In this document: one piece after another, positions 5,711 to 57,004 of the stretch
Layout of the letters: every line of letters begins with the position of its first letter
Position numbering within the stretch: the first letter of the stretch is position 1
Assembly (NCBI GenBank): GCA_963662865.1
Contig: OY759969.1
Coordinates: 2,287,742 to 2,351,741, forward strand
DNA from: Gammaproteobacteria bacterium
GTDB taxonomy: Bacteria > Pseudomonadota > Gammaproteobacteria > JAJDYQ01
DNA length: 64,000 bases
Direction: 5' to 3'
Position numbers and translations under genes: made by a program
Notes under the pieces: generated by a model
Seen by the model: only the letters and a program-made list of their open reading frames with translations
Database searches by the model: none
Told to the model about the DNA's origin: nothing

Positions 5711-6919
5711 ATGAGTAAATTAAAACTGGGAGTTATTGGAACTTCAAGAAAAGAAGATGAACGACGTTTCCCAATTCATCCAGAGCATTTGTCTCGTATT
5801 CCTGATGCTATTCGTCGTCAGCTAATATTTGAGGAGGGTTATGGAGCACCGTTTGATATTTCAGATTCAGAGATTGCTGCTCAGGCGGGTGGGATTGCAA
5901 CACGGCATGAATTATTAGCAGACATTGGCATGGTAATCATTTCAAAACCTGTACTGGCTGATTTATTGGAGCTCCGTGAAGGAGGAACGTTGTGGGGTTA
6001 TGTGCATTGTGTACAACAGCAGGATATCACTCAGGCTGCTTTGAACCGTAAGCAGACACTTATTGCCTTTGAGGATATGTTTGTTTGGTCTCCAAGCGGA
6101 CAACGATGTCGACATACATTCTATAAAAACAACGAATTAGCTGGTTATTGTGCGGTACTGCATGCCTTACAGCTTAAAGGAATCGATGGGCACTACGGCA
6201 ACCGCCGTAAAATAGTTATTTTCAGTTTTGGTGCAGTCAGTCGGGGAGCGATATACGCGCTCAAGGCTCATGGTTTTAGAGACATTACCATTTGTATTCA
6301 GCGCCCAGACCATGAAGTTCGTGAAGAGGTGCTTGATTGTCACTACGTTAAGGTTAGAGCGGGTAACGAAGACGAAGCGCGGATGATGGTGGTGGAGCAC
6401 GATGGAGCTAAAAGACCGTTGGCTGAACTCATTCTTGAAGCAGATATCATTGTAAATGGAACCTTTCAAGAAACGGATAATCCTACTGACTTTGTGATCG
6501 AAGAGGAAAGTTCGTGCCTTAAACCTCACAGTCTTATTATTGATGTCAGTTGTGATCAGGGAATGGGGTTCTTTTTTGCTAAACCAACCACATTTAAACA
6601 ACCGATATTTAAATATAAAACGATAGATTACTATGCTGTGGATCATACACCGAGCTTCCTTTGGGAAAGCGCAACTCGCTCAATTTCTGCCGCACTTATT
6701 GTATATTTATCAACGGTTCTATCGGGCCGTGATAGTTGGCAGAAAAATGAAACTATCAGATATGCTATAAATATTGATGGTGGTGTTATTAAAAAAACCT
6801 CAATTATTACGTTTCAAAATCGCGAATCGAATTACCCCCATAACCATATCAACCGACTTGAAAATAAATCCAAGAAGCCTAACAAATCAATCCAGCCGAC
6901 CGCCTTCGGCGGCGGCTGA
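5711..6919 (+). CDS. alanine dehydrogenase/PNT-family (N5-carboxyethyl-ornithine synthase-like) protein (cassette 3)
   Basis: 402 aa. N-terminal LKLGVIGTSRKEDERRFPIHPEH, followed by a Rossmann segment IVIFSFGAVSRGAIYAL. The family assignment is from pattern recall only. Confidence 0.45.
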   Translation: MSKLKLGVIGTSRKEDERRFPIHPEHLSRIPDAIRRQLIFEEGYGAPFDISDSEIAAQAGGIATRHELLADIGMVIISKPVLADLLELREGGTLWGYVHCVQQQDITQAALNRKQTLIAFEDMFVWSPSGQRCRHTFYKNNELAGYCAVLHALQLKGIDGHYGNRRKIVIFSFGAVSRGAIYALKAHGFRDITICIQRPDHEVREEVLDCHYVKVRAGNEDEARMMVVEHDGAKRPLAELILEADIIVNGTFQETDNPTDFVIEEESSCLKPHSLIIDVSCDQGMGFFFAKPTTFKQPIFKYKTIDYYAVDHTPSFLWESATRSISAALIVYLSTVLSGRDSWQKNETIRYAINIDGGVIKKTSIITFQNRESNYPHNHINRLENKSKKPNKSIQPTAFGGG

Positions 6920-6933
6920 TTGAGGCGTTAGGC
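6876..6933 (+). other. attC site 3
   Basis: GCCTAACAAATCAATCCAGCCGACCGCCTTCGGCGGCGGCTGATTGAGGCGTTAGGC, with a GCCTAAC inverse core and a GTTAGGC core around a short palindrome. Confidence 0.75.
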
Positions 6934-6956
6934 GCAAACCACAAACTAATGTTTTG

Positions 6957-8042
6957 TTAGGATTTTTCATTTAACAGAAACTCCATACCTGCCAACTCAT
7001 GTCCATTTACGATAATGCTAATCGAATGATTACCTGCATAATATTCTCTTGTTGAAATTTTCTTGAACGAAAAAGATTTCTTAACAGTTTTGTTATTACT
7101 ATCAACTTCTGACTCAGATATTTTGAATATTTTCCTTGATAAATTACCGCTTTTCTTAACAAAATCTATCGCATATTCAATTCTAAGCCTTCCGAGCTTT
7201 TGTTTTTGCGATTCAATTGTAAAAGAGAAATTCAGATTACCTTCCATTTCAACGGATTTTTGGGTTGTGAAATTTTTAATTTCAAGATGCTCTGGCTTTG
7301 AGAAGCCAAACAGATTCATTATCTCCGGCTGCCCTTGCTTTAGTAGCGTGCGACAAGCGTGCTTAATAATCCAGTCTGTTCGTTGATTGCTACCCAGCCA
7401 GCTCTTGGCTATCTCTATTACAATCTGTGGGTTATCTTTTGATATGTCATTCAGATTATTGGCAACGCTCCTTCTTACATATTCACTATCATCATTTTTC
7501 AGTTTTTCCAATATCGGCAGGATTTGGGATGGATCTCGCTTAAATTCAGGAAGTGCCATTGCCCAGGGTAAGCGAGGCCGACATCCTTCAGATGAAAGCC
7601 GACGTACATGGTGATTTTCTGATTCAGCCCATAATTCCATTTGTGCCATCATTTTCTTATTATGTTTTTTAATGAATGGTCGAACCGCAGACTCAGAACT
7701 TGCATACGAGGTGAAGTGCTCCAAAGCATGAATGGACTCTTCATACTGATCTAAGCCATACAGCTCCACAAAACCCGGAAAAAACATATACTGAAATCCA
7801 CTGAATTTTGATGACAATTTCATTAGTATTTGAATAGCATCAGAATAATCCATTGGTAAATATTGGTGCAATGATTCTGAAATATGTTTCATCCGCTCCT
7901 TTAGTTCTTTTTCTTTCCATTCATTATCAAATATATGAGAAGAAAACCCATCTTCATCAAAATTCTCATGCAGGCTTGACACTTGTTCGCACAAGGATTT
8001 TACAAGTTCAACGTTGTATAAGTTTTTTAATGGTTCCGGCAT
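6957..8042 (-). CDS. DNA alkylation repair protein (AlkD/AlkC-like HEAT-repeat glycosylase family) (cassette 4, reverse orientation)
   Basis: 361 aa. YVRRSVANNLNDISKDNPQIVIEIAKSWL matches the DNA_alkylation repair-enzyme family signature. Confidence 0.55.
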   Translation of the reverse strand: MPEPLKNLYNVELVKSLCEQVSSLHENFDEDGFSSHIFDNEWKEKELKERMKHISESLHQYLPMDYSDAIQILMKLSSKFSGFQYMFFPGFVELYGLDQYEESIHALEHFTSYASSESAVRPFIKKHNKKMMAQMELWAESENHHVRRLSSEGCRPRLPWAMALPEFKRDPSQILPILEKLKNDDSEYVRRSVANNLNDISKDNPQIVIEIAKSWLGSNQRTDWIIKHACRTLLKQGQPEIMNLFGFSKPEHLEIKNFTTQKSVEMEGNLNFSFTIESQKQKLGRLRIEYAIDFVKKSGNLSRKIFKISESEVDSNNKTVKKSFSFKKISTREYYAGNHSISIIVNGHELAGMEFLLNEKS

Positions 8043-46023: not shown

Positions 46024-46200
46024 TCCCCTTCCTCATGCACAGGCAAACCCAGGGACACGCCGATAATACCAGAATCATGGCCGGGATGACGCCCCCCAAC
46101 AGCGACCACCTGAACGAAAGGAGCGTACAGCATGAGCCGGGTTTAAGACCCAGGCAGGCCGGAAAATCGGATAGTCTGGTAATCAACACACAGTATGATT

Positions 46201-46250
46201 AAGACTGGCCTGCAAGCATCCACGCAGGCTGCGACTTTGTCTCATGGCAA
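46201..46250. repeat. left imperfect direct repeat flanking the dCD-like gene insertion
   Basis: AAGACTGGCCTGCAAGC...CACGCAGGCTGCGACTTTGTCTCATGGCA versus AAAACTGGCCTGGAACGCC...CCATGCAGGTCGCGACTTTGTCTCATAGCA at 47531..47602. Confidence 0.7.
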
Positions 46251-46509
46251 CTAATCAGGAAAGGTTTACAATGTGTTCCGGAAGGGATACCCTCGCTCAC
46301 ATGACAGTTATGGACCCGCAACCGGCCCAATAGCCGGCCGAAACAGCGGGTTGACATATTCGTAAAATGCACCACAAGCGCCATAGACAATATAATCCGC
46401 GTCGGCCCTGCCGCCCGGATCTGCCTCCGTCGCCGCTCAGACGGTCAATGCCGACGGTTTCCGCACCGTTATTCGGCCCGCCAATAGTATGGTACGCGCA
46501 TAGCCGGGT

Positions 46510-47496
46510 TTGATCATGTCAAAATTAATTGCAGACCGGGAAATAAGTCAGTTAATCGGTAGCGTCCTGATCGATGCCGATGAAAGTTACTTAAATCCTA
46601 ATGGTATTGAGCTTCGCTTGGGGAAACACATTTACTTCCATTCGACTAATGAGGAATGTGAACTGGCACCTGAGCAATTTTTAGTTGTCAGGCCAGGTGA
46701 AAATGTCATTATTACAAGCCATGAAGAGATTGATTTCTCTGAAAAAACCGTTCAACAACACTTTCCGGATTGCATGCTGATGGGTTGGGTGACACCAACG
46801 ACAACGATGATGAGAGAAGGGATTTCCCAGATTACCACAAAAGTGGATTCTGGCTATGTCGGCCAGCTTAACTGGAGGCTGCGTAATGGTTCGACAAAAG
46901 ATCTCATTCTCGGTTATGGGGAACCCGTCTATAAACTAACCCTGGAATTGCTTAAAGAAGATGAAAAGCCTGACAAGCCTTATGGAGAACGGGAACGGGA
47001 CACCTATCAGGACAATAAAGGCATCAAGCATTCTACCCGGCAAATACCCGCACAAATCCCCGAGAATAAAAAAGTAAAATCCAGCTTTGAAAGCTCTGAC
47101 CCGGTCAAACAGCTAAAAGACGCAGGATATCCCTTCAACCACATCAGTACTGAACTGATCGCATTGCGAGGTGATATCGAAACCGTATCGAAAGATTTCG
47201 GCAACTTGAAAAGAGAAATTGACCAGCTCGGCAATAAAATAGATAAAGAAACCAAAACACTGGCCGATAAAATTCAGGAAGCACAGCAAAACCTTATGCA
47301 AAATGCAGAAAATTTATTCAATAATAAATTCAATAAAATAACAGGCATCCTTATAGGCTCGTTAGTCATTATAGCAAGCGTTACTGCCTACTTCTCGAAA
47401 AGCAACATCGACGATAACGTCTTATTATTAGGAGGATTAATTGCTGGTATTATGATTATCCTCATAATAGTCGGCCTCAATAAAGCCGATAAATAA
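46510..47496 (+). CDS. dCTP deaminase/dUTPase-fold domain protein fused to a coiled-coil and two C-terminal transmembrane helices
   Basis: N-terminal roughly 160 aa are colinear with Dcd: LIADREISQLIGSVLI, IELRLGKHIYF, VRPGENVIITSHEEIDFS, WVTPTTTMMREGISQITTKVDSGYVGQLNWRLRN and GEPVYKLTLEL. This is followed by a KE-rich coiled-coil and the hydrophobic segments ITGILIGSLVIIASVTAYF and LLLGGLIAGIMIILIIVGL. Confidence 0.7.
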   Translation: MIMSKLIADREISQLIGSVLIDADESYLNPNGIELRLGKHIYFHSTNEECELAPEQFLVVRPGENVIITSHEEIDFSEKTVQQHFPDCMLMGWVTPTTTMMREGISQITTKVDSGYVGQLNWRLRNGSTKDLILGYGEPVYKLTLELLKEDEKPDKPYGERERDTYQDNKGIKHSTRQIPAQIPENKKVKSSFESSDPVKQLKDAGYPFNHISTELIALRGDIETVSKDFGNLKREIDQLGNKIDKETKTLADKIQEAQQNLMQNAENLFNNKFNKITGILIGSLVIIASVTAYFSKSNIDDNVLLLGGLIAGIMIILIIVGLNKADK

Positions 47497-47530
47497 CATT
47501 AAACTATCCGAACGCTTGGTGCCGGGAGGA

Positions 47531-47602
47531 TAAAACTGGCCTGGAACGCCCATGGACGACCGACAGCAACCCATGCAGGTCGCGACTTTGTCTCATAGCA
47601 GG
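47531..47602. repeat. right imperfect direct repeat flanking the dCD-like gene insertion
   Basis: See the left copy at 46201..46250. This copy carries a 20-bp insertion between the two conserved blocks. Confidence 0.7.
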
Positions 47603-47777
47603 CGGTTACCGATGCGGCCAGCCAGTTCAAGAGTGAGTTCGACCATCTGAGAAAGGGCACTATATGGTGGACTCATACAGCACCTGGACAACAATTAGCG
47701 GCTTCATATAGAATGCCCCGCCTTTTCACCGCCACCGATGTCGGCGGACATAATTAACCGTTTTTTCGAGGTGCGAC

Positions 47778-49411: not shown

Positions 49412-50902
49412 GTGAATAAAGAAGAATTCCTTGCTCTCGCTGAAAAGGGCTACAACAAAATACCGATAACCAGCGAAGTGCTCGCCGATCTTGAGACCCC
49501 GCTCAGTGCCTTTCTAAAGCTGGCGGCCCAGCCCAACACCTATCTGTTTGAATCAGTACAGGGCGGGGAAAAATGGGGGCGCTATTCCATTATTGGTCTT
49601 CCCTGTAACTCACGAATCGAGGTTTACGGAAACCGGGTGGACCTTGTTGTCGATGGGCAGGTTACTGAATCGGAAACCGTGGACGACCCTTTAGACTGGA
49701 TTGAGCAGCGGTACAACCGCTTCAACGTCGCTCCGACGGAAAGCGCGCCCCCATTTACCGGCGGACTGGTTGGATATTTCGGCTTCGATACCATTCGATA
49801 TATCGAGCCACGACTGGCCGGAGGGGAAAACAGGGATACCCTGGGTACGCCGGATATCGTGTTATTCATCTCCGAAGAGGTTGTCGTTTTTGACAACCGG
49901 CACGGTAAACTGTTTTTTGTCGTACTGGCCGATACCAATGCAACGGCTTACGACCGGTGTCAGGAACGATTGCATTTTCTCAGTAAGCAGCTTCGCGGTA
50001 ACTGTGAGGATTACCGCTGGATCAAGGAGGGCGAAGCTATCATCAGGGAAGAAGACTTCATATCGGAATTTACCCGGGATGAATTCAAGGCCGCCGTTGA
50101 CCGCGTCAAGCAATACATCAAATCCGGTGACGCCATGCAGGTCGTATTGTCGCAGCGCATGTCTATCCCGCTGAACGTCGCCGCTCTGGATGTTTATCGC
50201 GTCCTGAGGAGTTTGAATCCTTCCCCGTACATGTTCTATATTGACCTGGGCGACTTCCAGATTGCAGGTTCCTCTCCGGAAATTCTGACACGGGTTGAAA
50301 ACGGCATCGTTACCGTGCGCCCGATCGCGGGTACCCGTCCCCGAGGAAAGGATGAGGTGGAAGACAAGGCCCTGGAAAAAGAATTGCTCGCCGACCCCAA
50401 GGAGCTTGCCGAACACTTGATGCTCATTGACCTCGGACGGAACGATACGGGCCGCGTGAGTAAAATCGGCACGGTGCAGCTGACAGACCGGATGATCGTC
50501 GAACGCTATTCCCACGTCATGCACATCGTGTCCAATGTCACCGGTGAACTGGACAGGTCGCATAGCCTTATGGGTGCGCTGCGTGCCACGTTTCCGGCAG
50601 GGACCGTTAGTGGTGCGCCTAAAATCAGGGCACTCGAAATTATTGATGAACTTGAGCCGATTAAACGCGGGATTTATTCCGGTGCCGTCGGTTATCTATC
50701 GTGGAGCGGCAATATGGATACGGCTATCGCCCTGCGCACTGCGGTGGTGAAAGACAACCGCCTGACCATCCAGGCGGGTGCGGGTATTGTTGCCGACTCC
50801 GACCCCGGCAAAGAGTGGGAAGAAACCATGAACAAGGGACGCGCCATGTTCAGGGCGGTCGCACTGGCTGAATCAGGCTTTATGCCGAAAGGAGGTGAAT
50901 GA
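49412..50902 (+). CDS. trpE: anthranilate synthase component I
   Basis: LESV.GGE, the chorismate-binding C-terminal half [20 protein letters not shown]. 496 aa. Confidence 0.9.
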
Positions 50903-51480
50903 TGATTCTCATGATCGATAATTATGACTCATTCACCTATAATCTTGTGCAATATCTGGGCGAGCTGGGCGCACATACCGAGGTGTATCGCAACGACAGG
51001 ATTACGTTGGATGAAATCACCGAACTGGCTCCGGAAAAGATAGTGATTTCCCCGGGTCCGTGCACACCGAATGAAGCCGGCATATCCGTCGAAATAATCA
51101 AGCGGTTCGCAGGTAAAGTGCCGTTGCTCGGTGTTTGTCTGGGCCACCAGAGTATCGGGCAGGCATTTGGCGGCCACATCACCCGAGCCCGGCAGATCAT
51201 GCACGGCAAGACCTCAATGATTTATCACGACGATACCGGGCTGTTCAAAGGACTACCCAACCCTCTCCAGGCCACCCGCTACCACTCACTCATTATTGAG
51301 CAGTCCTCGCTGCCCGACAACCTTCGGGTCAACGCCTGGACACGTCTTGGAGACGGCTCAAGAGATGAGATTATGGGTGTCACACATAAAAATCATATCG
51401 TCATTGGCATACAGTTTCATCCGGAGTCCATCCTGACACCGGAAGGCCATGACATGTTGAGAAACTTTCTGGAGATGTGA
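50899..51480 (+). CDS. trpG: anthranilate synthase component II (glutamine amidotransferase)
   Basis: [19 protein letters not shown] ... GVCLGHQ ... HPES. Confidence 0.9.
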
Positions 51481-51489
51481 CAATACACC

Positions 51490-52135
51490 GCCACACAACC
51501 AGATAATCAAGCCAGACCAGCGAAAAAAGACTAGAACCTATCTCAAGTGTTATCCCAACTACAAAACGGTCCATCGGCGTTTTCAAAAATGGTGCGAAGA
51601 CCATGTGATTCGTGACATGATGGTGGAGCTTGTCAATACATTGAGAGCGCAAAATGACTTAAGATGAATTGGAATGTTTTATTGACGGCATGTTTTCTCC
51701 AGCCAAAGGTGGAGGCGAAGAAATTAGGTTGACCAAGCGCGGAAAAGGCATTAAAATCATGGCGATAGTGGACAAACACGGATTGCCTTTGTCGGTCAGT
51801 CCTCATGCGGCCAGTCACCATGAAGTGACATTAGTTCAACTGAGTTTTGATTTTTACATGATTGAGGCGAGGCCGGAAAAACTGATTGGAGATAAGTCGC
51901 TATGACAGCGCTCCGTTTGATGAAGAACTGGCAGAACAAGGAATAGAAATGATTGCGCCGCACAAGCGAAATCGAGTCAAGCCAAGTACTTAAAATGGGC
52001 GAAAACTCAGGCGCTATCAATGGCGCTGGTTGGCCGAATATTTTCGGTGGGAGTATTATGCTGCTAATTTCCTGGGCTTTGTTCAACTGGCTACTGTTAA
52101 TATCCTGCTTAAACAATTTTGATATAGGTCTTAAT
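51490..52135 (+). mobile_element. IS5-family DDE transposase gene remnant (frameshifted and 5'-truncated)
   Basis: Pieces in three frames: YKTVHRRFQKWCEDHVIRDMM; ECFIDGMFSPAKGGGEEIRLTKRGKGIKIMAIVDKHGLPLSVS...EARPEKLIGDKSYDS; [17 protein letters not shown]...RRYQWRWL. The IS5/IS1031-type C-terminal region carries a deletion relative to the second copy. Confidence 0.75.
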
Positions 52136-53219
52136 GGCAAGGAAGACGAGAAAAAGAATGTATTATATGCTGAAAAAAGCCTTATATCCATACTACGGCA
52201 TTAGAGTCACAATAAAGCGCTTGAATTATATATGGAAATTAGCGTTTTACCCGTTAATTATTCAAGTTGGGAGAAGAAAAGAGCCAGGCATAAATGAGAA
52301 TAAAAGTACACGAACAGTAAAAATTTTACATTGCTCCTCAAGAATAAATTTCACCACGTTAAAGAAGCAATTTAATACAGAAAAAGGATGGGGGAATATA
52401 GAATTCACAACAGACAGATATGCTGATTATTATCTTATAGTGGATCATCCGCTGAATGGTCAACTGTCATACTACAATCCGAAGCGAACGTTGCTTTATT
52501 TTGGAGAGCCTTCAGGATCTTCAATGCCAATGTTTAGAAGAATGTTCATGAAGGCATGGAGCGAGCTTGATAAAGAAAGCTTTTTTCATGTGTCACAAAT
52601 GCCGCACAGACGAATGTTTACGATCTGGCATCTCTCAAAGTCATACCATTGGTTGAAAGAAAACTCAATCCGTAAAACAAAGGTGTGTTCCACGGTAACA
52701 TCAGATCAGAGCCTGCTTCCTCTTCATAAAAAAAGATTGCAGTTCGTCACAATGCTGGATGAGCAGATCAGCATAGACATATATGGAAAAGTGAACAGGT
52801 TCAGGTCGCCACTAAAAGCCTGTTCGCAATATCAAGGGGAACTGCCGCCTATTGGAAAAGACAAAGGACTGTTTCCATACAAATATCATTTTGCTTCTGA
52901 GAACAACATTGAAGATAATTACATTACGGAGAAGCTAACGGATGCAATTCTGGCGGAGTGTTTATGCTTTTATTATGGGACGAAGACAGCTAAAGACTGG
53001 ATAGATAGCGAGGCATTTATCCATATAGATATAATGAGGCCTGCTGAGGCGATTAGCCTTATAAAAAAGGCAATTGAAAATAAAGAGTGGGAAAAGCGCA
53101 TCCACATTATACGCAAAGAAAAGCAGAAAATACTGGATGAAATGCAGCTATTTGCTGACATTGAGAATGTAATAAATCACAATGAAAAATTTATGCAGTA
53201 TAAAAAATTGAGAAAGTAA
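52134..53219 (+). CDS. GT10-family alpha-1,3-fucosyltransferase-like glycosyltransferase (AT-rich cargo between IS remnants)
   Basis: YHFASENNIEDNYITEKLTDAILAECLCFYYGTKTAKDWIDSEAFIHI matches the conserved FxxxFENSxxxxYxTEK block of alpha-1,3-fucosyltransferases such as the H. pylori FutA motif FENSQGYGYVTEKIIDAYFSHTIPIYWG. The true start may be an internal Met at about 52161. Confidence 0.7.
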   Translation: MARKTRKRMYYMLKKALYPYYGIRVTIKRLNYIWKLAFYPLIIQVGRRKEPGINENKSTRTVKILHCSSRINFTTLKKQFNTEKGWGNIEFTTDRYADYYLIVDHPLNGQLSYYNPKRTLLYFGEPSGSSMPMFRRMFMKAWSELDKESFFHVSQMPHRRMFTIWHLSKSYHWLKENSIRKTKVCSTVTSDQSLLPLHKKRLQFVTMLDEQISIDIYGKVNRFRSPLKACSQYQGELPPIGKDKGLFPYKYHFASENNIEDNYITEKLTDAILAECLCFYYGTKTAKDWIDSEAFIHIDIMRPAEAISLIKKAIENKEWEKRIHIIRKEKQKILDEMQLFADIENVINHNEKFMQYKKLRK

Positions 53220-53295
53220 ATGATGTGATAATTGATATTGATTGTAAAAAATAGAAGAAGGTTTGTGGGGGATGAGGAGGTCCTATAGTATCTAT

Positions 53296-53640
53296 GATTT
53301 TTCAAAACACTTTTGAGTTTTGATTTTTACATGATTGAGGCGAAGCCGGAAAAACTGATTGGAGATAAGGCCTATGACAGCGATCCGCTTAATGTAAGGG
53401 CTGGCAGAACAAGGAATAGAAATGATTGCGCCACACAAGAGAAATCAAGTTAAGCCAAGTACTCAAGATGAACGAAAGCTCAGGCGCTATCAGCGCCGCT
53501 GGTTGGTTGAACGTTTTTTTGCCTGGATACAATGGCAAAGACGCTTCCTTGTTCGATGGGAATATCATGCTGCCAATTTCCTGGGCTTTGTTCAACTGGC
53601 TACTGTTAATATCCTGCTTAAACAATTTTGAGATAGGCTC
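53296..53640 (+). mobile_element. second, partial copy of the IS5-family transposase 3' end (direct repeat of 51850..52135)
   Basis: [74 protein letters not shown] is about 88% identical to the first copy and ends 5 bp before the trpD ATG. Confidence 0.75.
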
Positions 53641-53644
53641 TACT

Positions 53645-54670
53645 ATGAATTTACAACAAGCTATTGCGACCGTCATTGACGGACGGGACCTGTCGCACGA
53701 CGACATGAAAAATGTCATGCGTCTCATCATGACCGGCGAGGCAACCGCGGCCCAGATCGGTGGTTTCCTGATTGGTCTGCGCATGAAAGGGGAAACAGTG
53801 GACGAGATCGCGGCGGCGGCGAAGGTGATGCGCGACCTCGCACACAAGGTTGATGTTTCCGGTGACCATATTGTCGATATTGTCGGCACCGGCGGCGACG
53901 GTTCCGGCACATTCAATATCTCCACGGCCTCCTGTTTTGTGGTTGCTGCGGCAGGCGGCAAGGTCGCCAAACACGGCAACCGTTCAATCTCCAGCAAGTC
54001 CGGCAGTGCCGATTTACTCGAAGCTGCCGGCGTCAACCTCGATCTGACCCCTGAACAGATCGAACAATGTATCGAACGGGTCGGTGTTGGTTTTATGTTT
54101 GCCCCCAGGCACCATAGCGCCATGAAACATGCGATCGGCCCTCGTAAAGAAATGGGGGTGCGCACCATATTCAATATCCTGGGACCGCTCACCAATCCCG
54201 CCGATGTGCCTAATCTGGTCATGGGCGTCTTTTCTCGAAAACTGGTGGAACCACTGGCGCACGTATTCAAGGCATTGGGCAGCAACCACGTCATGGTCGT
54301 GCATTCGGATGATGGGCTGGATGAAATCAGCACTGCCGCCAATACCCATGTTGCCGAATTGAGAAATGGTGAAATCACCACCTGGGAGATTGACCCCGCT
54401 GATTATGGATGCCAGGCCGACAGCCTTGAACCAATCAAAGTGGAGAGTGCAGAGGAAAGTCTCGAGCTGGTGTACTTGGTACTGGCCGGCAAGCCGGGCC
54501 CCGCGCTGGACATCGTTGTACTTAACGCCGGAGCCGCAATCTACGTCTCAGGCCTTGCGGATTCCATGGCAGCCGGCGTTGCCAGGGCGCGAGAGGTTAT
54601 TGAGTCGGAAGATGCCGCAGAAAAAATGGCGCAGCTTGTTTCCGTATCCAACATGTCTGCCGTCGTATAG
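53645..54670 (+). CDS. trpD: anthranilate phosphoribosyltransferase
   Basis: [51 protein letters not shown] ... [17 protein letters not shown]. The upstream part of the track ORF is the IS fragment in frame. Confidence 0.9.
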
Positions 54671-55016
54671 GTGCCGGAACAGACTGATTCATGCTGCGCA
54701 ATTACTCCGGTGCAGACCGGAGCGTGTCAGATGGGGAGATACTCGTCTGCAAGGTGTACAGACCATCATCAAGAGGTAAAAGGGGGGTGTTTTCTGAGAG
54801 CCACGATAACGACTTCCTCTTCGGTTGCCGGTACCATGGAACGGGCATCCTGCGGCCCCGGCCCGATGTCTTCAACACTGTGGCGTTTGCGCCACTTCGC
54901 CGCGGCCTCTTCATTGATGCCATAGCGCTGACTTAACTCTTTGAGCAAAGCCGTTGATCACTGTATTGACGTTCGGATCACATATGTTGTCGTGGTGCTT
55001 GCATGTAATAGCTGAC

Positions 55017-55913
55017 CTATAAATCCTCCTGTTCAAATGGCTTAAAAAACTTGGGATCAATATCATAAGTTGTACGAGGCTTTACACCCAATTCTAGTTT
55101 TTCAAACATCTCCACTAGCTTCTCGCCATCTACCAGTTCTATTGGCCGAGCGCCATCGCGCATGGCTTCTCTTTTTGCATCAGATGTAAAACTTCCGGTG
55201 GTGAGCACTATGCCTTTTTCGGCGCGCCCCTCCATTGCGCCGCGAAAATCGCGTATTTGCGACGAGGTAACACTGCCTTTATATCGCTTACATTGGAACA
55301 CTACCTGGAAGCTGACGAGCGGATTAATCTGCAGGATCCCATTACCATCTATGCCTCCATCACCTGACCGACCGGTTACTTCCACGTTTTCGAAACCTGC
55401 TTCCCTTAAAAGCCTTTGGCATACACGCTCAAAACCAAAGGATGGTAGAGATTTTAATATTCTGAGTAATTCCTCTCTGTAGCTCGTATCCGACATATCA
55501 GAAAAAATAGTTTCATCGGATTTCTGTGAAAAATTTTGTTCATGATTATCTGTAGATTTTCTTGTTTTCGTCTTCGCTGATGCGTTTCTAGTACTTTTAG
55601 TAATTTCTTCTATCTCTTCTTCAGATAGTTGGTGAGCACGCTGCCCCTTTTCTGTTAAAGCCCAAACTCCCCTTGGCGAGGAATTATCAAGATAACCCGT
55701 TTTAACCAAATGAAATCTTGCCCAGTGAACTTGATCTTTATAATGGGATTGACCATTTTTTAGCGTTTTATCAAGAACATCATCACTTAAAGATAGATCA
55801 TTAGCAATTCTTGCGCAGACTTCATCTGGTCTAGCAGATCCTCCCAATTTCTTCAGCGCGGATATAAGTGGATTCATGTAAACTGCAAACGCTGGTCCAG
55901 CCATTCTTACCAT
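55017..55913 (-). CDS. mrr: Mrr-family restriction endonuclease (N-terminal winged helix plus Mrr catalytic domain)
   Basis: FERVCQRLLREAGFENVEVTGRSGDGGIDGNGIL ... QCKRY ... catalytic core of the Mrr_cat type. AT-rich. Lies between trpD and trpC on the opposite strand. Confidence 0.75.
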   Translation of the reverse strand: MVRMAGPAFAVYMNPLISALKKLGGSARPDEVCARIANDLSLSDDVLDKTLKNGQSHYKDQVHWARFHLVKTGYLDNSSPRGVWALTEKGQRAHQLSEEEIEEITKSTRNASAKTKTRKSTDNHEQNFSQKSDETIFSDMSDTSYREELLRILKSLPSFGFERVCQRLLREAGFENVEVTGRSGDGGIDGNGILQINPLVSFQVVFQCKRYKGSVTSSQIRDFRGAMEGRAEKGIVLTTGSFTSDAKREAMRDGARPIELVDGEKLVEMFEKLELGVKPRTTYDIDPKFFKPFEQEDL

Positions 55914-56206
55914 TCCTCTGGGTTAATAGGCATAACTATTAATAGTATGGCCTAGCCTACCACAAAATGCGAATAGGCGCAAAAATCGTGTGCTAAAATG
56001 ATTCACTCGCTTCTAGCCCAAAATATATTTATATTAAAGTGTCTGCTTCAACGCAAAATCAGGCCCGGGATGCCATCTTTCCCGCATGGGCTGGCTGATG
56101 GGCCAGTCAATACAATAGCATATGACCACACAAGGGGCTGGGATTACAAGCCCGAATGCGGTACATTGTCAGCAGAGAAAATGCAATATGTAGGAGATTT
56201 ATACAC

Positions 56207-57004
56207 ATGCCCGATACGCCTGATATCCTGCTGAAAATACTTGACTGCAAGCGCCAGGAGATTGCCGCACGCAGCGCATCTATATCGCTGGCCGATCTGG
56301 AAGCAAAGACAGGTCAGGCACCTCGGCCACGCGGCTTTGTTGCCGCAATACGGCGCTCCGTTGCCGATGGCCGTGCGGCCGTTATTGCCGAAGCAAAGAG
56401 GGCATCACCCAGTAATGGTATCGTGCGGAGAGATTTTGATATCGTGCAGATTGCCAAAAGCTACCAGGCCGGCGGTGCCAGTTGCATGTCGGTCCTCACC
56501 GACAAAGACTTCTTCCAGGGCAGCGACGACTATCTGAAACAGGCGCGTACAGCCTGCGACCTGCCGCTGATACGCAAAGACTTTATTATTGATCCTTACC
56601 AGGTCCATGAGGCACGCATCATAGGGGCTGACTGTATTTTACTGATTGCCGAGGCCCTCGAAGATGCACAAATGGCCGAATTGACTCGGCTCGCAGGGCA
56701 ATTGGAACTGGACGTGCTGATTGAAGCCCATGACGGTAATGAACTGGAGCGTGCGCTGCAACTCGACCAGACCCTGGTAGGTATCAATAATCGCAACCTG
56801 CATACCTTCAAAACAACACTGGACACCACCATCAACCTGCTTGATCAGGTCCCCAAAGATCGGATTGTTGTTACCGAAAGTGGTATTCATACACGGGAAG
56901 ACGTAAAACGGATGCAGGATAATAATGTGAACGCCTTTTTGGTTGGAGAGGCATTTATGCGGGTGCCTGAACCGGGAGAGAAATTGAGAGAACTGTTCTT
57001 TTGA
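56207..57004 (+). CDS. trpC: indole-3-glycerol phosphate synthase
   Basis: [15 protein letters not shown] ... [13 protein letters not shown] ... LIGINNRNL. Confidence 0.9.

Follow-up and report, generated by a model that had tools for sequence, protein, structure and literature searches.

A GT10-family glycosyltransferase gene between IS5-family remnants in a gammaproteobacterial trp operon

How did an AT-rich GT10-family glycosyltransferase gene come to lie between trpG and trpD of a biosynthetic operon, and what has become of it there? Here we examined a stretch of 64 kb (the window) containing this trp operon and compared the interrupted cluster with those of related genomes. An earlier note on this DNA had described a trp operon split between trpG and trpD by IS5-family remnants together with an AT-rich GT10 gene, and all of these elements are present (Table 1).

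Table 1. Positions of the trp genes and of the inserted elements in the window
Feature	Position	Strand	Basis and remarks
trpE (anthranilate synthase component I)	49412..50902	+	intact 496-aa ORF; 4-nt overlap with trpG
trpG (glutamine amidotransferase component)	50899..51480	+	intact; Pfam GATase 200 bits; syntenic in L081 and L083
Left part of ancestral trpG-trpD spacer, 53 nt	51481..51533	+	last 2 nt are the target TA (51532-51533)
IS5-family copy 1, non-autonomous	51534..52131	+	both ends kept; aligned to three full-length 833-bp relatives; inverted repeat search
GT10-family glycosyltransferase gene	52134..53219	+	intact, 361 aa; alternative start 52158; TA (52132-52133) between gene and copy 1
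AT-rich 3' flank of GT10 gene, 94 bp	53220..53313	+	homologous neither to the IS nor to the relatives' spacer
IS5-family copy 2, 3' 327 bp only (IS nt about 508-833)	53314..53640	+	aligned to full-length relatives
Right-hand TA (53641-53642) and CT, final 2 nt of ancestral spacer	53641..53644	+	sequence
trpD (anthranilate phosphoribosyltransferase)	53645..54670	+	intact, 341 aa; Pfam Glycos_transf_3 332 bits
trpD-trpC interruption: IS481-like remnant and Mrr-type gene	54671..56134		Pfam, PADLOC, comparison with relatives
trpC (indole-3-glycerol-phosphate synthase)	56207..57004	+	ORF; probable start MPDTPD (start regions aligned with L081 and L083)

An insertion at a single TA of the trpG-trpD spacer

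The trp genes of the window have clear counterparts in syntenic relatives. Its trpE shows ∼81-83% DNA identity to that of L081 and L083, where the gene is of equal length and encodes a Chorismate_bind domain. The trpD product is identical to a database protein (P0085, 341 aa) and has orthologues of 340-341 aa that are 88-89% identical, while the trpC orthologues of L081 and L083 have 265 or 266 aa, with an IGPS domain. The arrangement in L083 (OZ243932.1) is trpG-55 nt-trpD-3 nt-trpC, with no interruption, and in L081 and L082 trpG and trpD are separated by an uninterrupted spacer of 53 nt. These comparisons show that the ancestral order was a contiguous trpE-trpG-(about 55 nt)-trpD-trpC. Since the trpG-trpD junction is uninterrupted in the relatives, all 2.1 kb of the block are inserted DNA, in agreement with the earlier description of the GT10 gene as the passenger of a decayed IS within a biosynthetic operon.

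DNA homology to L081 and L083 breaks off at 51483-51485 and returns at 53642-53645. The 53 nt that follow trpG (51481-51533) can be aligned to the trpG-trpD spacers of OZ243932.1 (55 nt) and Ga0131710_100020 (53 nt), and with the 2 nt 5' of the trpD ATG they reconstruct a spacer of 55 nt. IS-derived DNA had previously been placed from about 51490; its true start is 51534, and the alignment of the relatives' spacers rules out a first copy that is 5'-truncated at 51490. The unit so delimited (51534-53640) is 2,107 bp long and is followed by 4 nt and then by the trpD ATG (53645). The distance of 5 bp between the second copy and this ATG given earlier needs correction, as the IS end lies 4 nt from the ATG and the homology between the two copies stops 7 nt from it.

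The ends of the unit are those of the IS. It starts with GAACCTATCTCAA at 51534 and carries the inverted complement at 53628-53640, the inverted repeats agreeing at 12 of 13 positions between the two ends, and it is flanked by TA on both sides in the context CTA...TAC. An inverted repeat search found only three such sites in the entire window. We collected 72 full-length IS relatives from metagenomes (817-846 bp, mode 833), every one of which has the same inverted repeats; TA...TA flanks are found in 65 of the 72, the wider context CTA...TAG in 46 and CTA...TAC in 2. The block is bounded by the inverted repeats and the usual TA flanks of its own IS family. All 2,107 bp lie at one TA of the spacer, with 2 nt left before the start codon of trpD. 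All four trp genes and the cargo ORF are intact.

We considered whether the block could have been misjoined into the trp operon during assembly. IS repeats are a classic cause of misjoins, and the sequence comes from the assembly of an uncultured organism, in which each of the proteins is found only once and all of them on one 2.57-Mb contig. Such an artefact is nevertheless very improbable, since at each junction an exact IS end, with the TA flank of its family, meets one half of the ancestral spacer, an arrangement that would not arise from a chimeric join. Identity between the two copies, moreover, is no higher than about 90%, with indels between them, and no further copy of this IS or of the unit was found elsewhere in the 64-kb window.

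The operon is interrupted a second time, between trpD and trpC. This segment contains an IS481-like remnant (about 54690-55026, a weak IS481 match) and, on the minus strand, a type IV restriction endonuclease gene of the Mrr type (55017-55913; Pfam Mrr_cat and Mrr_N; PADLOC mREase_IV). Its edges are common to L081, where the cargo is another, and the segment is missing from L083, in which trpC begins 3 nt after trpD; the trpD-trpC interruption is older than the trpG-trpD insertion. With two such insertions, the operon junctions of this lineage serve as landing pads for cargo. The one between trpG and trpD is also a case of a tolerated operon interruption, with 2.1 kb inserted 2 nt from a start codon in an essential amino-acid operon whose trp genes are intact.

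The IS copies and the origin of the unit

Two direct copies of the IS around an intact 361-aa ORF had been noticed before and were found again by blastn, which aligned 51841-52128 (288 nt) with 53314-53637 (324 nt) at an E value of about 1e-86; the repeats are about 90% identical apart from a 36-bp deletion of copy 1. Their derivation from a transposase, on which the earlier reading hinged, was confirmed. When joined across the frameshifts, the reconstructed transposase matches the NCBIfam profile NF033580 ‘IS5 family transposase’ (transpos_IS5_3) with 144.3 bits (cutoff 110) over positions 54-257 of 258 and Pfam DDE_Tnp_1 with 61.7 bits, and it has a DUF4096-type N-terminal remnant.

Neither copy holds an intact transposase gene, and both are remnants rather than active IS. 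Copy 1 had been viewed as a longer frameshifted remnant. Frameshifts are indeed present, along with a stop codon and the 36-bp deletion, but the copy is not simply 5'-truncated: it still has its left inverted repeat GAACCTATCTCA as well as its right end, and the N-terminus of the transposase was lost through an internal deletion of 201 bp (IS nt 13-213). It is a mild coincidence that just 12 nt of the left end are kept beside this deletion. Copy 2 has one frameshift and a 69-aa ORF that matches Pfam DDE_Tnp_1, and it ends in the right inverted repeat TTGAGATAGGCTC (inverted repeat search, 1 mismatch in 16). The GC content of the copies is 0.44, and relative to outgroup IS they have derived substitutions in common. 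Their ∼10% divergence means either that they differed already when the unit was formed or that decay has been long since then. The copies resemble the short (about 0.83 kb) IS5-family elements of NF033580 in the DDE domain, the GAACCTATCTCAA ends and a TA duplication that usually lies within CTAG. However, those elements are plain single-ORF IS, whereas the copies described here are defective and enclose cargo, and protein identity to the closest relatives is no more than 70-78%.

With two direct copies of one IS around the cargo and both outer inverted repeats kept, the block is probably a decayed IS5-family compound transposon within the trp operon, composed of the left inverted repeat, an internally deleted IS, the GT10 gene, the 94-bp flank, an IS 3' fragment and the right inverted repeat. 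Compound (composite) transposons include Tn5, Tn9 and Tn10. Like these and like IS-with-passenger elements, the block has two copies of one IS around cargo, and intact outer ends flanked by the target dinucleotide of the IS, a layout that is in principle mobile as one unit if transposase is supplied. It differs from Tn5, Tn9 and Tn10 in that its IS copies are direct and decayed and its cargo is a glycosyltransferase gene instead of a resistance or catabolic gene. The 94-bp flank probably moved together with the GT10 gene.

In the history that we envisage, an IS would have inserted, elsewhere in the genome, at a TA immediately 5' of a GT10 paralogue, with a second copy downstream. A transposase using the outermost left and right ends would then have moved IS-GT10-IS as one unit; alternatively, homologous recombination may have copied the IS-flanked module into an IS that already occupied the TA between trpG and trpD. 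Copy 1 would later have lost the transposase N-terminus and copy 2 its 5' 500 bp, deletions that would have immobilised the unit. Since the copies are now decayed, the unit is immobile.

The recombinational route can be taken further, and a history in which the block never was a transposing unit is possible, though we think it distinctly less likely. A solo complete IS would have entered the spacer TA first. The IS 3' end, the GT10 gene and its flank would have been added later from an IS-flanked GT10 locus elsewhere in the genome, by double crossover or by gene conversion. The final structure and TA flanks predicted for this course are identical to those seen; since TA is the regular target of this IS, the flanks fit compound transposition and a solo IS with later cargo equally, and nothing in the sequence separates the two. 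Recombination between dispersed copies does operate in this genome, as seen in a stretch of 188 residues that is 99-100% identical between GT10 paralogues beside an N-domain of 68% identity, and IS copies about 10% apart are what separate histories would be expected to leave. On the other hand, this course needs two events and a donor already arranged as IS-GT10-IS, and it is no simpler. Read as a compound transposon, which we prefer, the block is a well-preserved fossil of gene movement by an IS: the empty site is known from relatives, both ends of the IS have survived together with the target dinucleotide, and the later decay that froze the element is readable base by base. It represents real but fairly ordinary transposon-borne gene traffic and leaves the current understanding of transposons, trp operons and fucosyltransferases unchanged.

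The GT10 protein, its paralogues and its homologues

The cargo ORF encodes a GT10-family glycosyltransferase. The gene is 1,086 nt long with a GC content of 0.37, compared with 0.51-0.56 in the trp genes, so that its composition, like that of the IS copies, is foreign to the operon. Its product contains YHFASENNIEDNYITEKL, is 100% identical to a database protein (P0001) and matches Pfam PF00852 (Glyco_transf_10) with 44.2 bits (cutoff 23.9) at residues 183-311. A profile built from 77 homologues and searched against the PDB identified Helicobacter pylori FucT (2nzw, E value 3.5e-13) and FUT9 (5.8e-8). The GT10 fold that the earlier note had presupposed is borne out by a confident AlphaFold2 model (pLDDT 92.5, pTM 0.90), for which the top Foldseek ranks in the PDB are GT10 fucosyltransferases, namely FUT9 (8d0w, 8d0o) and HpFucT (2nzx, 2nzw, 2nzy, 5zoi), with mango FT13 (7yro) from rank 12. 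These matches have E values of 5e-8 to 1e-5 with TM scores of only 0.4-0.5, and identity to characterised enzymes is only 12-19%. There was no match to the Pfam GT10 N-terminal domain (Glyco_tran_10_N) in the 361-aa protein, and a PADLOC search for defence systems gave no match for it.

The donor-site motif (F/C)xENxxxxxYxTEK is present as SENNIEDNYITEK. Residues E256, N257, Y263, E266 and K267 align with HpFucT E239, N240, Y246, E249 and K250. The residues of the motif are invariant or nearly so in the 77 homologues, and all nearly invariant residues of the family are present in the window protein. Against HpFucT, hhalign and hmmsearch aligned only this C-terminal motif (with an approximate HpFucT sequence in the case of hhalign). 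Two further residues that hardly vary across the family, E125 (in YFGEP) and R201, are plausible equivalents of the N-domain catalytic base (Glu95) and the phosphate-binding arginine (Arg195) of HpFucT. The catalytic residues of HpFucT are Glu95 and Glu249 (PMC4202792). Given that identity to characterised enzymes is so low, we infer the donor and the linkage: the protein would most likely use GDP-fucose as its donor and fucosylate a surface glycan.

In comparison with H. pylori FutA, FutB and FucT (PDB 2NZW, 5ZOI) and human FUT9 (8D0O), the window protein is alike in its GT-B fold and has the ENxxxxxYxTEK donor motif and a C-terminal helical tail in common with them. It differs in having no heptad repeats and a long N-terminal helical segment (residues 2-49). 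A further likeness lies at the genome level, since H. pylori carries several fucosyltransferase paralogues per genome with evidence of recombination between them (PMC4202792), and the lineage of the window likewise has several paralogues per genome with signs of recombination. Two further paralogues, P0002 and P0003, are recorded on a contig of equal length (2,573,357 bp) and are taken to be on the same contig as P0001. C-domain identity is 99% and 89% within the genome and 73-76% to other genomes, and N-domain identity is 60-68%. This pattern suggests that the C-terminal (donor) domain is held near-identical by gene conversion while the N-terminal (acceptor) domain has diverged.

GT10 genes had been considered unusual outside Helicobacter-type mimicry, a view that finds no support here. 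Homologues occur in Actinomycetota, Acidobacteriota, Burkholderiales, Rhodobacterales, Bacteroidota, Verrucomicrobiota and giant viruses, and related gammaproteobacterial genomes have two to four copies each, with a tandem pair in L001, so the gene is not rare. As for the Lewis-antigen mimicry that had been brought up, nothing in this analysis shows a link to it. The closest structural matches overall are multidomain glycosyltransferases of giant viruses (Klosneuvirus, Terrestrivirus and Harvfovirus), with TM scores of 0.72-0.73 on the query and 30-36% identity. These viral proteins have 560-935 aa, of which the GT10-like domain is only a part, and being uncharacterised they add no functional information. 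Giant-virus contigs encode GT10 homologues that are 31-40% identical. Phage delivery of the gene is unsupported, as homologues on viral contigs are at most 40% identical and mostly belong to giant viruses. The subfamily is uncharacterised and widespread in environmental bacteria and giant viruses, and the combination of a concerted donor domain with a diverging acceptor domain may interest glycoenzyme engineers.

Transcription through the insert and the standing of the GT10 gene

No terminator was detected on the plus strand between trpG and trpD. The 94-bp flank downstream of the GT10 gene has no terminator-like fold (RNA fold z-score 0.53, no better than shuffles), and an Rfam search of the insert gave no match. 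With 14 promoter-like matches versus 10.1 ± 3.4 expected, the promoter scan stayed at chance level, so that an IS-borne promoter cannot be claimed. Given the shared orientation of all parts and the lack of a detectable terminator, read-through from the trpE promoter is the most likely source of transcripts for both the GT10 gene and trpD, consistent with the dependence of trpD on read-through suggested earlier. The original upstream sequence of trpD would have been replaced by the IS end GAGATAGG, 7 nt from the ATG.

These features also bear on whether the GT10 ORF is a passenger that has no function and will decay in time, its frame still open only by chance or through gene conversion from functional paralogues, with the insertion neutral or slightly deleterious. 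Both adjoining IS copies are heavily decayed, the annotated ATG lies 2 nt from the IS end without a clear ribosome-binding site, no dedicated promoter stands out, and the gene is outside any glycan gene cluster. We nonetheless regard this as unlikely. An AT-rich frame of 1,086 nt has stayed open while IS DNA of similar age alongside it has acquired stops, frameshifts and deletions, and the product keeps both a confidently predicted fold and all the residues that are nearly invariant in the 77 homologues. Relatives, too, retain intact single GT10 genes located after housekeeping genes.

When the flanks of eight GT10 genes were compared all against all by blastn, only synteny between sister MAGs and the IS repeats of the window itself emerged, and neither IS ends nor a transposase were found at the GT10 loci of the relatives. 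A lineage-wide mobile cassette of integron, MITE or IS type was rejected on the basis of these flank comparisons and searches. More speculatively, and with low confidence on our part, the GT10 genes of the lineage might be a scattered set of surface-glycan modifiers that diversifies by itself, in which promoterless single genes are moved by IS and settle, co-oriented, directly downstream of housekeeping genes (trpG, mnmA, prfC, ppsA and fumarate hydratase), the acceptor domains diverging while gene conversion keeps the donor domain near-identical. If true, such a set would provide a range of fucosylation specificities that could serve in interaction with a host or in evading phages, in loose analogy to futA/futB variation in H. 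pylori.

A foreign block in the trpG-trpD spacer

We found trpE, trpG, trpD and trpC to be full length (4/4), with a block of foreign DNA between trpG and trpD on the same strand as its neighbours (Table). Two direct repeats within the block (blastn E ~1e-86), ~90% identical leaving aside a 36-bp deletion in the first, enclose an intact 361-aa ORF, and GC content is 0.51-0.56 in the trp genes, 0.44 in the repeats and 0.37 in the ORF. The repeat pair, the intact ORF and the GC contrast therefore show that the arrangement described in the earlier note, IS remnants around an intact ORF in the trp operon, is real and far beyond chance.

Table. Features of the trp region in the window and GT10 loci in related MAGs
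Feature	Location	Strand	Details
AT-rich 328-aa ORF	46510-47496		within 46024-47690; between DUF3530 gene and rpe
trpE	49412-50902	+	
trpG	50899-51480	+	
IS copy 1	51534-52131	+	IS nt 1-12, then deletion, then nt 214-833
Direct repeat, first	51841-52128	+	
361-aa ORF (GT10)	52134-53219	+	
IS copy 2	53314-53640	+	IS nt ~508-833, one frameshift
Direct repeat, second	53314-53637	+	
trpD	53645-54670	+	
trpD/trpC insert	54671-56134		IS481-like remnant + Mrr-type restriction enzyme gene
Mrr-type restriction endonuclease gene	55017-55913		type IV, methyl-directed; on the - strand
trpC	start 56207	+	
GT10 locus	L001 5902-8116		tandem pair
GT10 locus	L002 5779-6981		
GT10 loci	L003 and L005 ~5755-7002		
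GT10 locus	L004 5896-6942		
GT10 locus	L007 5914-6819		

Against NCBIfam NF033580 'IS5 family transposase' (cutoff 110), the transposase protein stitched across frameshifts reached 144 bits and covered positions 54-257 of the 258 in the profile; it also scored 61.7 bits on Pfam DDE_Tnp_1, confirming that the flanking repeats are transposase-derived. Searching JGI metagenomes with this protein gave 80 loci (67-78% identity), 72 of them elements with both ends present. These full-length relatives measure 817-846 bp (commonest 833), have one ORF each of ~255 aa and terminal inverted repeats GAACCTATCTCAAAA, and are flanked by TA...TA in 65/72 cases, CTA...TAG in 46/72 and CTA...TAC in 2/72. We mapped the window copies by alignment to three full-length metagenomic elements. 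Copy 1 has lost 201 bp internally (IS nt 13-213, the leader and first 50-odd codons), and its remaining portion carries the 36-bp deletion, single-base indels and one stop; neither copy is able to encode a transposase. Both share substitutions absent from the outgroup elements and are therefore of one IS lineage. No further copy or solo end of this IS was found elsewhere in the 64-kb window.

Readable loci were available from two related uncultured gammaproteobacteria with TrpD orthologues 88% identical. The spacer between trpG and trpD is 55 nt in OZ243932.1 (locus L083; rpe-gph-trpE-trpG-trpD-trpC-cmoA-cmoB) and 53 nt in Ga0131710_100020 (locus L081). DNA homology to both relatives ends at 51483-51485 and restarts at 53642-53645. 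The left junction of the block reads ...GAC TA / GAACCTATCTCAA and the right TTGAGATAGGCTC / TA CT ATG, so that its outer limits are the IS family's own ends plus the target dinucleotide TA. Without the 2,107-bp block and one copy of TA, the spacer would measure 55 nt and match the relatives, which places the entire block at a single point in the spacer, 2 nt ahead of the trpD ATG. The earlier note was thus correct in placing IS5-family remnants with a GT10 gene between trpG and trpD, and the IS ends and the relatives' empty site bound them well. Its IS-derived start at ~51490 was not borne out: we rejected 51481-51533 as the start of the remnant, as it aligns with both relatives' spacers and is ancestral spacer. 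The insertion postdates the split from each of these relatives, whose trp DNA is ~82% identical to that of the window.

The GT10 protein and its relatives

The ORF scored 44.2 bits on Pfam Glyco_transf_10 (curated cutoff 23.9), and a profile of 77 homologues matched the H. pylori fucosyltransferase HpFucT (2nzw; 3.5e-13), core alpha1,3-fucosyltransferase 9s6a and the human GT10 enzyme FUT9. In the profile alignment E256, N257, Y263, E266 and K267 of the donor site SENNIEDNYITEK fall onto HpFucT 239-250, which takes in Glu249, one of two glutamates that inactivate the enzyme when mutated (PMC4202792). The AlphaFold model (pLDDT 92.5, pTM 0.90) is a very confident GT-B fold with a long helical segment before it and helices after; its best PDB matches were FUT9 and HpFucT, with mango FT13 lower (E 5e-8 to 1e-5, TM 0.4-0.5, 12-19% identity). 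Family, profile and donor-site matches together with the predicted fold, which the earlier note had anticipated, thus establish GT10 membership, from which we infer a GDP-fucose donor and an alpha1,3/4 linkage. The N-domain catalytic base gave no alignment to HpFucT; E125 and R201, nearly invariant among homologues, are candidates only. Homologues fused to GT25 and GT32 domains occur, and point to surface-glycan synthesis. The nearest predicted structures overall were domains of giant-virus glycosyltransferases (Terrestrivirus, Klosneuvirus, Harvfovirus; 30-36% identity, TM 0.72-0.73), and giant-virus MAG contigs carry homologues at 31-40% identity.

The supposed rarity of GT10 enzymes in free-living proteobacteria did not hold: homologues range over Actinomycetota, Acidobacteriota, Burkholderiales, Rhodobacterales, Bacteroidota, Verrucomicrobiota, Melainabacteria and giant viruses, and close relatives have two to four copies per genome. 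These copies are AT-rich genes (GC 0.34-0.39 vs 0.47-0.50), singletons apart from the L001 tandem pair, located 3' of a housekeeping gene (mnmA, prfC, ppsA or the class I fumarate hydratase gene) and always co-oriented with it. No common flanking sequence or end of this IS was present at the relatives' GT10 loci. In L002 the gene is closely preceded by the remains of another, rve-type transposase, and a thiamine-diphosphate enzyme gene and pta stand beside the GT10 site in related MAGs. Adjoining mnmA on the - strand is a membrane-anchored ankyrin-repeat protein (L001 3839-4519, L002 3415-4038; repeat motif judged by eye); with its neighbours it gives a hint of possible host association for these genomes of about 2.5 Mb. 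JAJDYQ01 is a GTDB placeholder order only (PMC11427306).

The window's genome has two further GT10 paralogues, P0002 and P0003, reported from an equally long contig (2,573,357 bp) that we take to be the same one. Over residues 156-343 (C-domain; window 52599-53162) they are 99-100% and 89% identical, respectively, to the trp-located copy, vs 73-76% for other genomes, whereas their N-domains are only 60-68% identical to it. This mosaic indicates that gene conversion has recently acted on the donor-binding half alone, over old divergence of the acceptor domain. That a dispersed, converting GT10 repertoire generates surface-glycan diversity is an unlikely reading.

Arrival of the block and expression of its genes

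The block is a decayed IS5-family compound transposon, or IS-flanked module, with an intact GT10-family glycosyltransferase gene; IS family, composite element and glycosyltransferase family are each of known kind. We are confident that it is an IS-bounded cargo insertion, and a compound transposon is the simplest account. A TA immediately 5' of a GT10 gene would have received one IS, and that TA is still present (52132-52133, next to the ATG); a second copy would have come to lie 94 bp downstream of the gene. The whole unit would then have been moved by transposase working on its outermost left and right ends. Equally compatible is a solo IS at the trp-spacer TA that later gained IS-flanked cargo via homologous recombination, because this IS always targets TA and the 2-bp TA fits both accounts; that dispersed copies recombine in this genome is clear from the paralogue mosaic. 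We nevertheless hold transposition of the whole unit to be the likelier route. Under either, the donor would be an IS-GT10-IS arrangement, and deletions would have immobilised it afterwards. The mosaic also argues for an old trp insertion, consistent with how far the IS copies have decayed.

No terminator-like site was found on the + strand between trpG and trpD, the 94-bp flank 3' of GT10 folded no better than shuffled sequence (z = 0.53), no Rfam element was present in the insert, and promoter-like matches were at chance level (14 found vs 10.1 +/- 3.4 expected); on these results, GT10 and trpD are most likely both transcribed by read-through from upstream. The IS end GAGATAGG, at 7 nt from the trpD ATG, appears to have taken the place of the sequence that originally preceded this codon. 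One promoter-like site at 52030-52059 (TTGGCC and TATTAT, 18-nt spacing; 9/12 consensus, in a scan at chance level overall) was juxtaposed by copy 1's 36-bp deletion, ~75 nt upstream of the GT10 start, and does not occur in copy 2.

Other inserts in the conserved block

The trpD/trpC insert has edges in common with L081, where the cargo is different (DUF3825 and others), and is suggestive of an older island whose cargo has turned over; OZ243932.1 is without it, trpC following trpD by 3 nt. Between gph and trpE, L081 (2391-4826) carries an Eco57I-type methylase/restriction gene and a split BsuBI/PstI-type endonuclease gene, and a HicAB pair lies upstream of its rpe. The conserved block thus collects defence-type cargo, at junctions that differ from genome to genome. 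In OZ243932.1 only ~200 bp separate the DUF3530 gene from rpe (L083 2356-3162, 3371-4075), so 46024-47690 is probably another insertion; its 328-aa ORF has a dCTP-deaminase-like N-terminal domain and a hydrophobic C-terminus, with only a marginal CorA-like match in PADLOC. Intergenic junctions of the conserved block are used repeatedly as landing sites.
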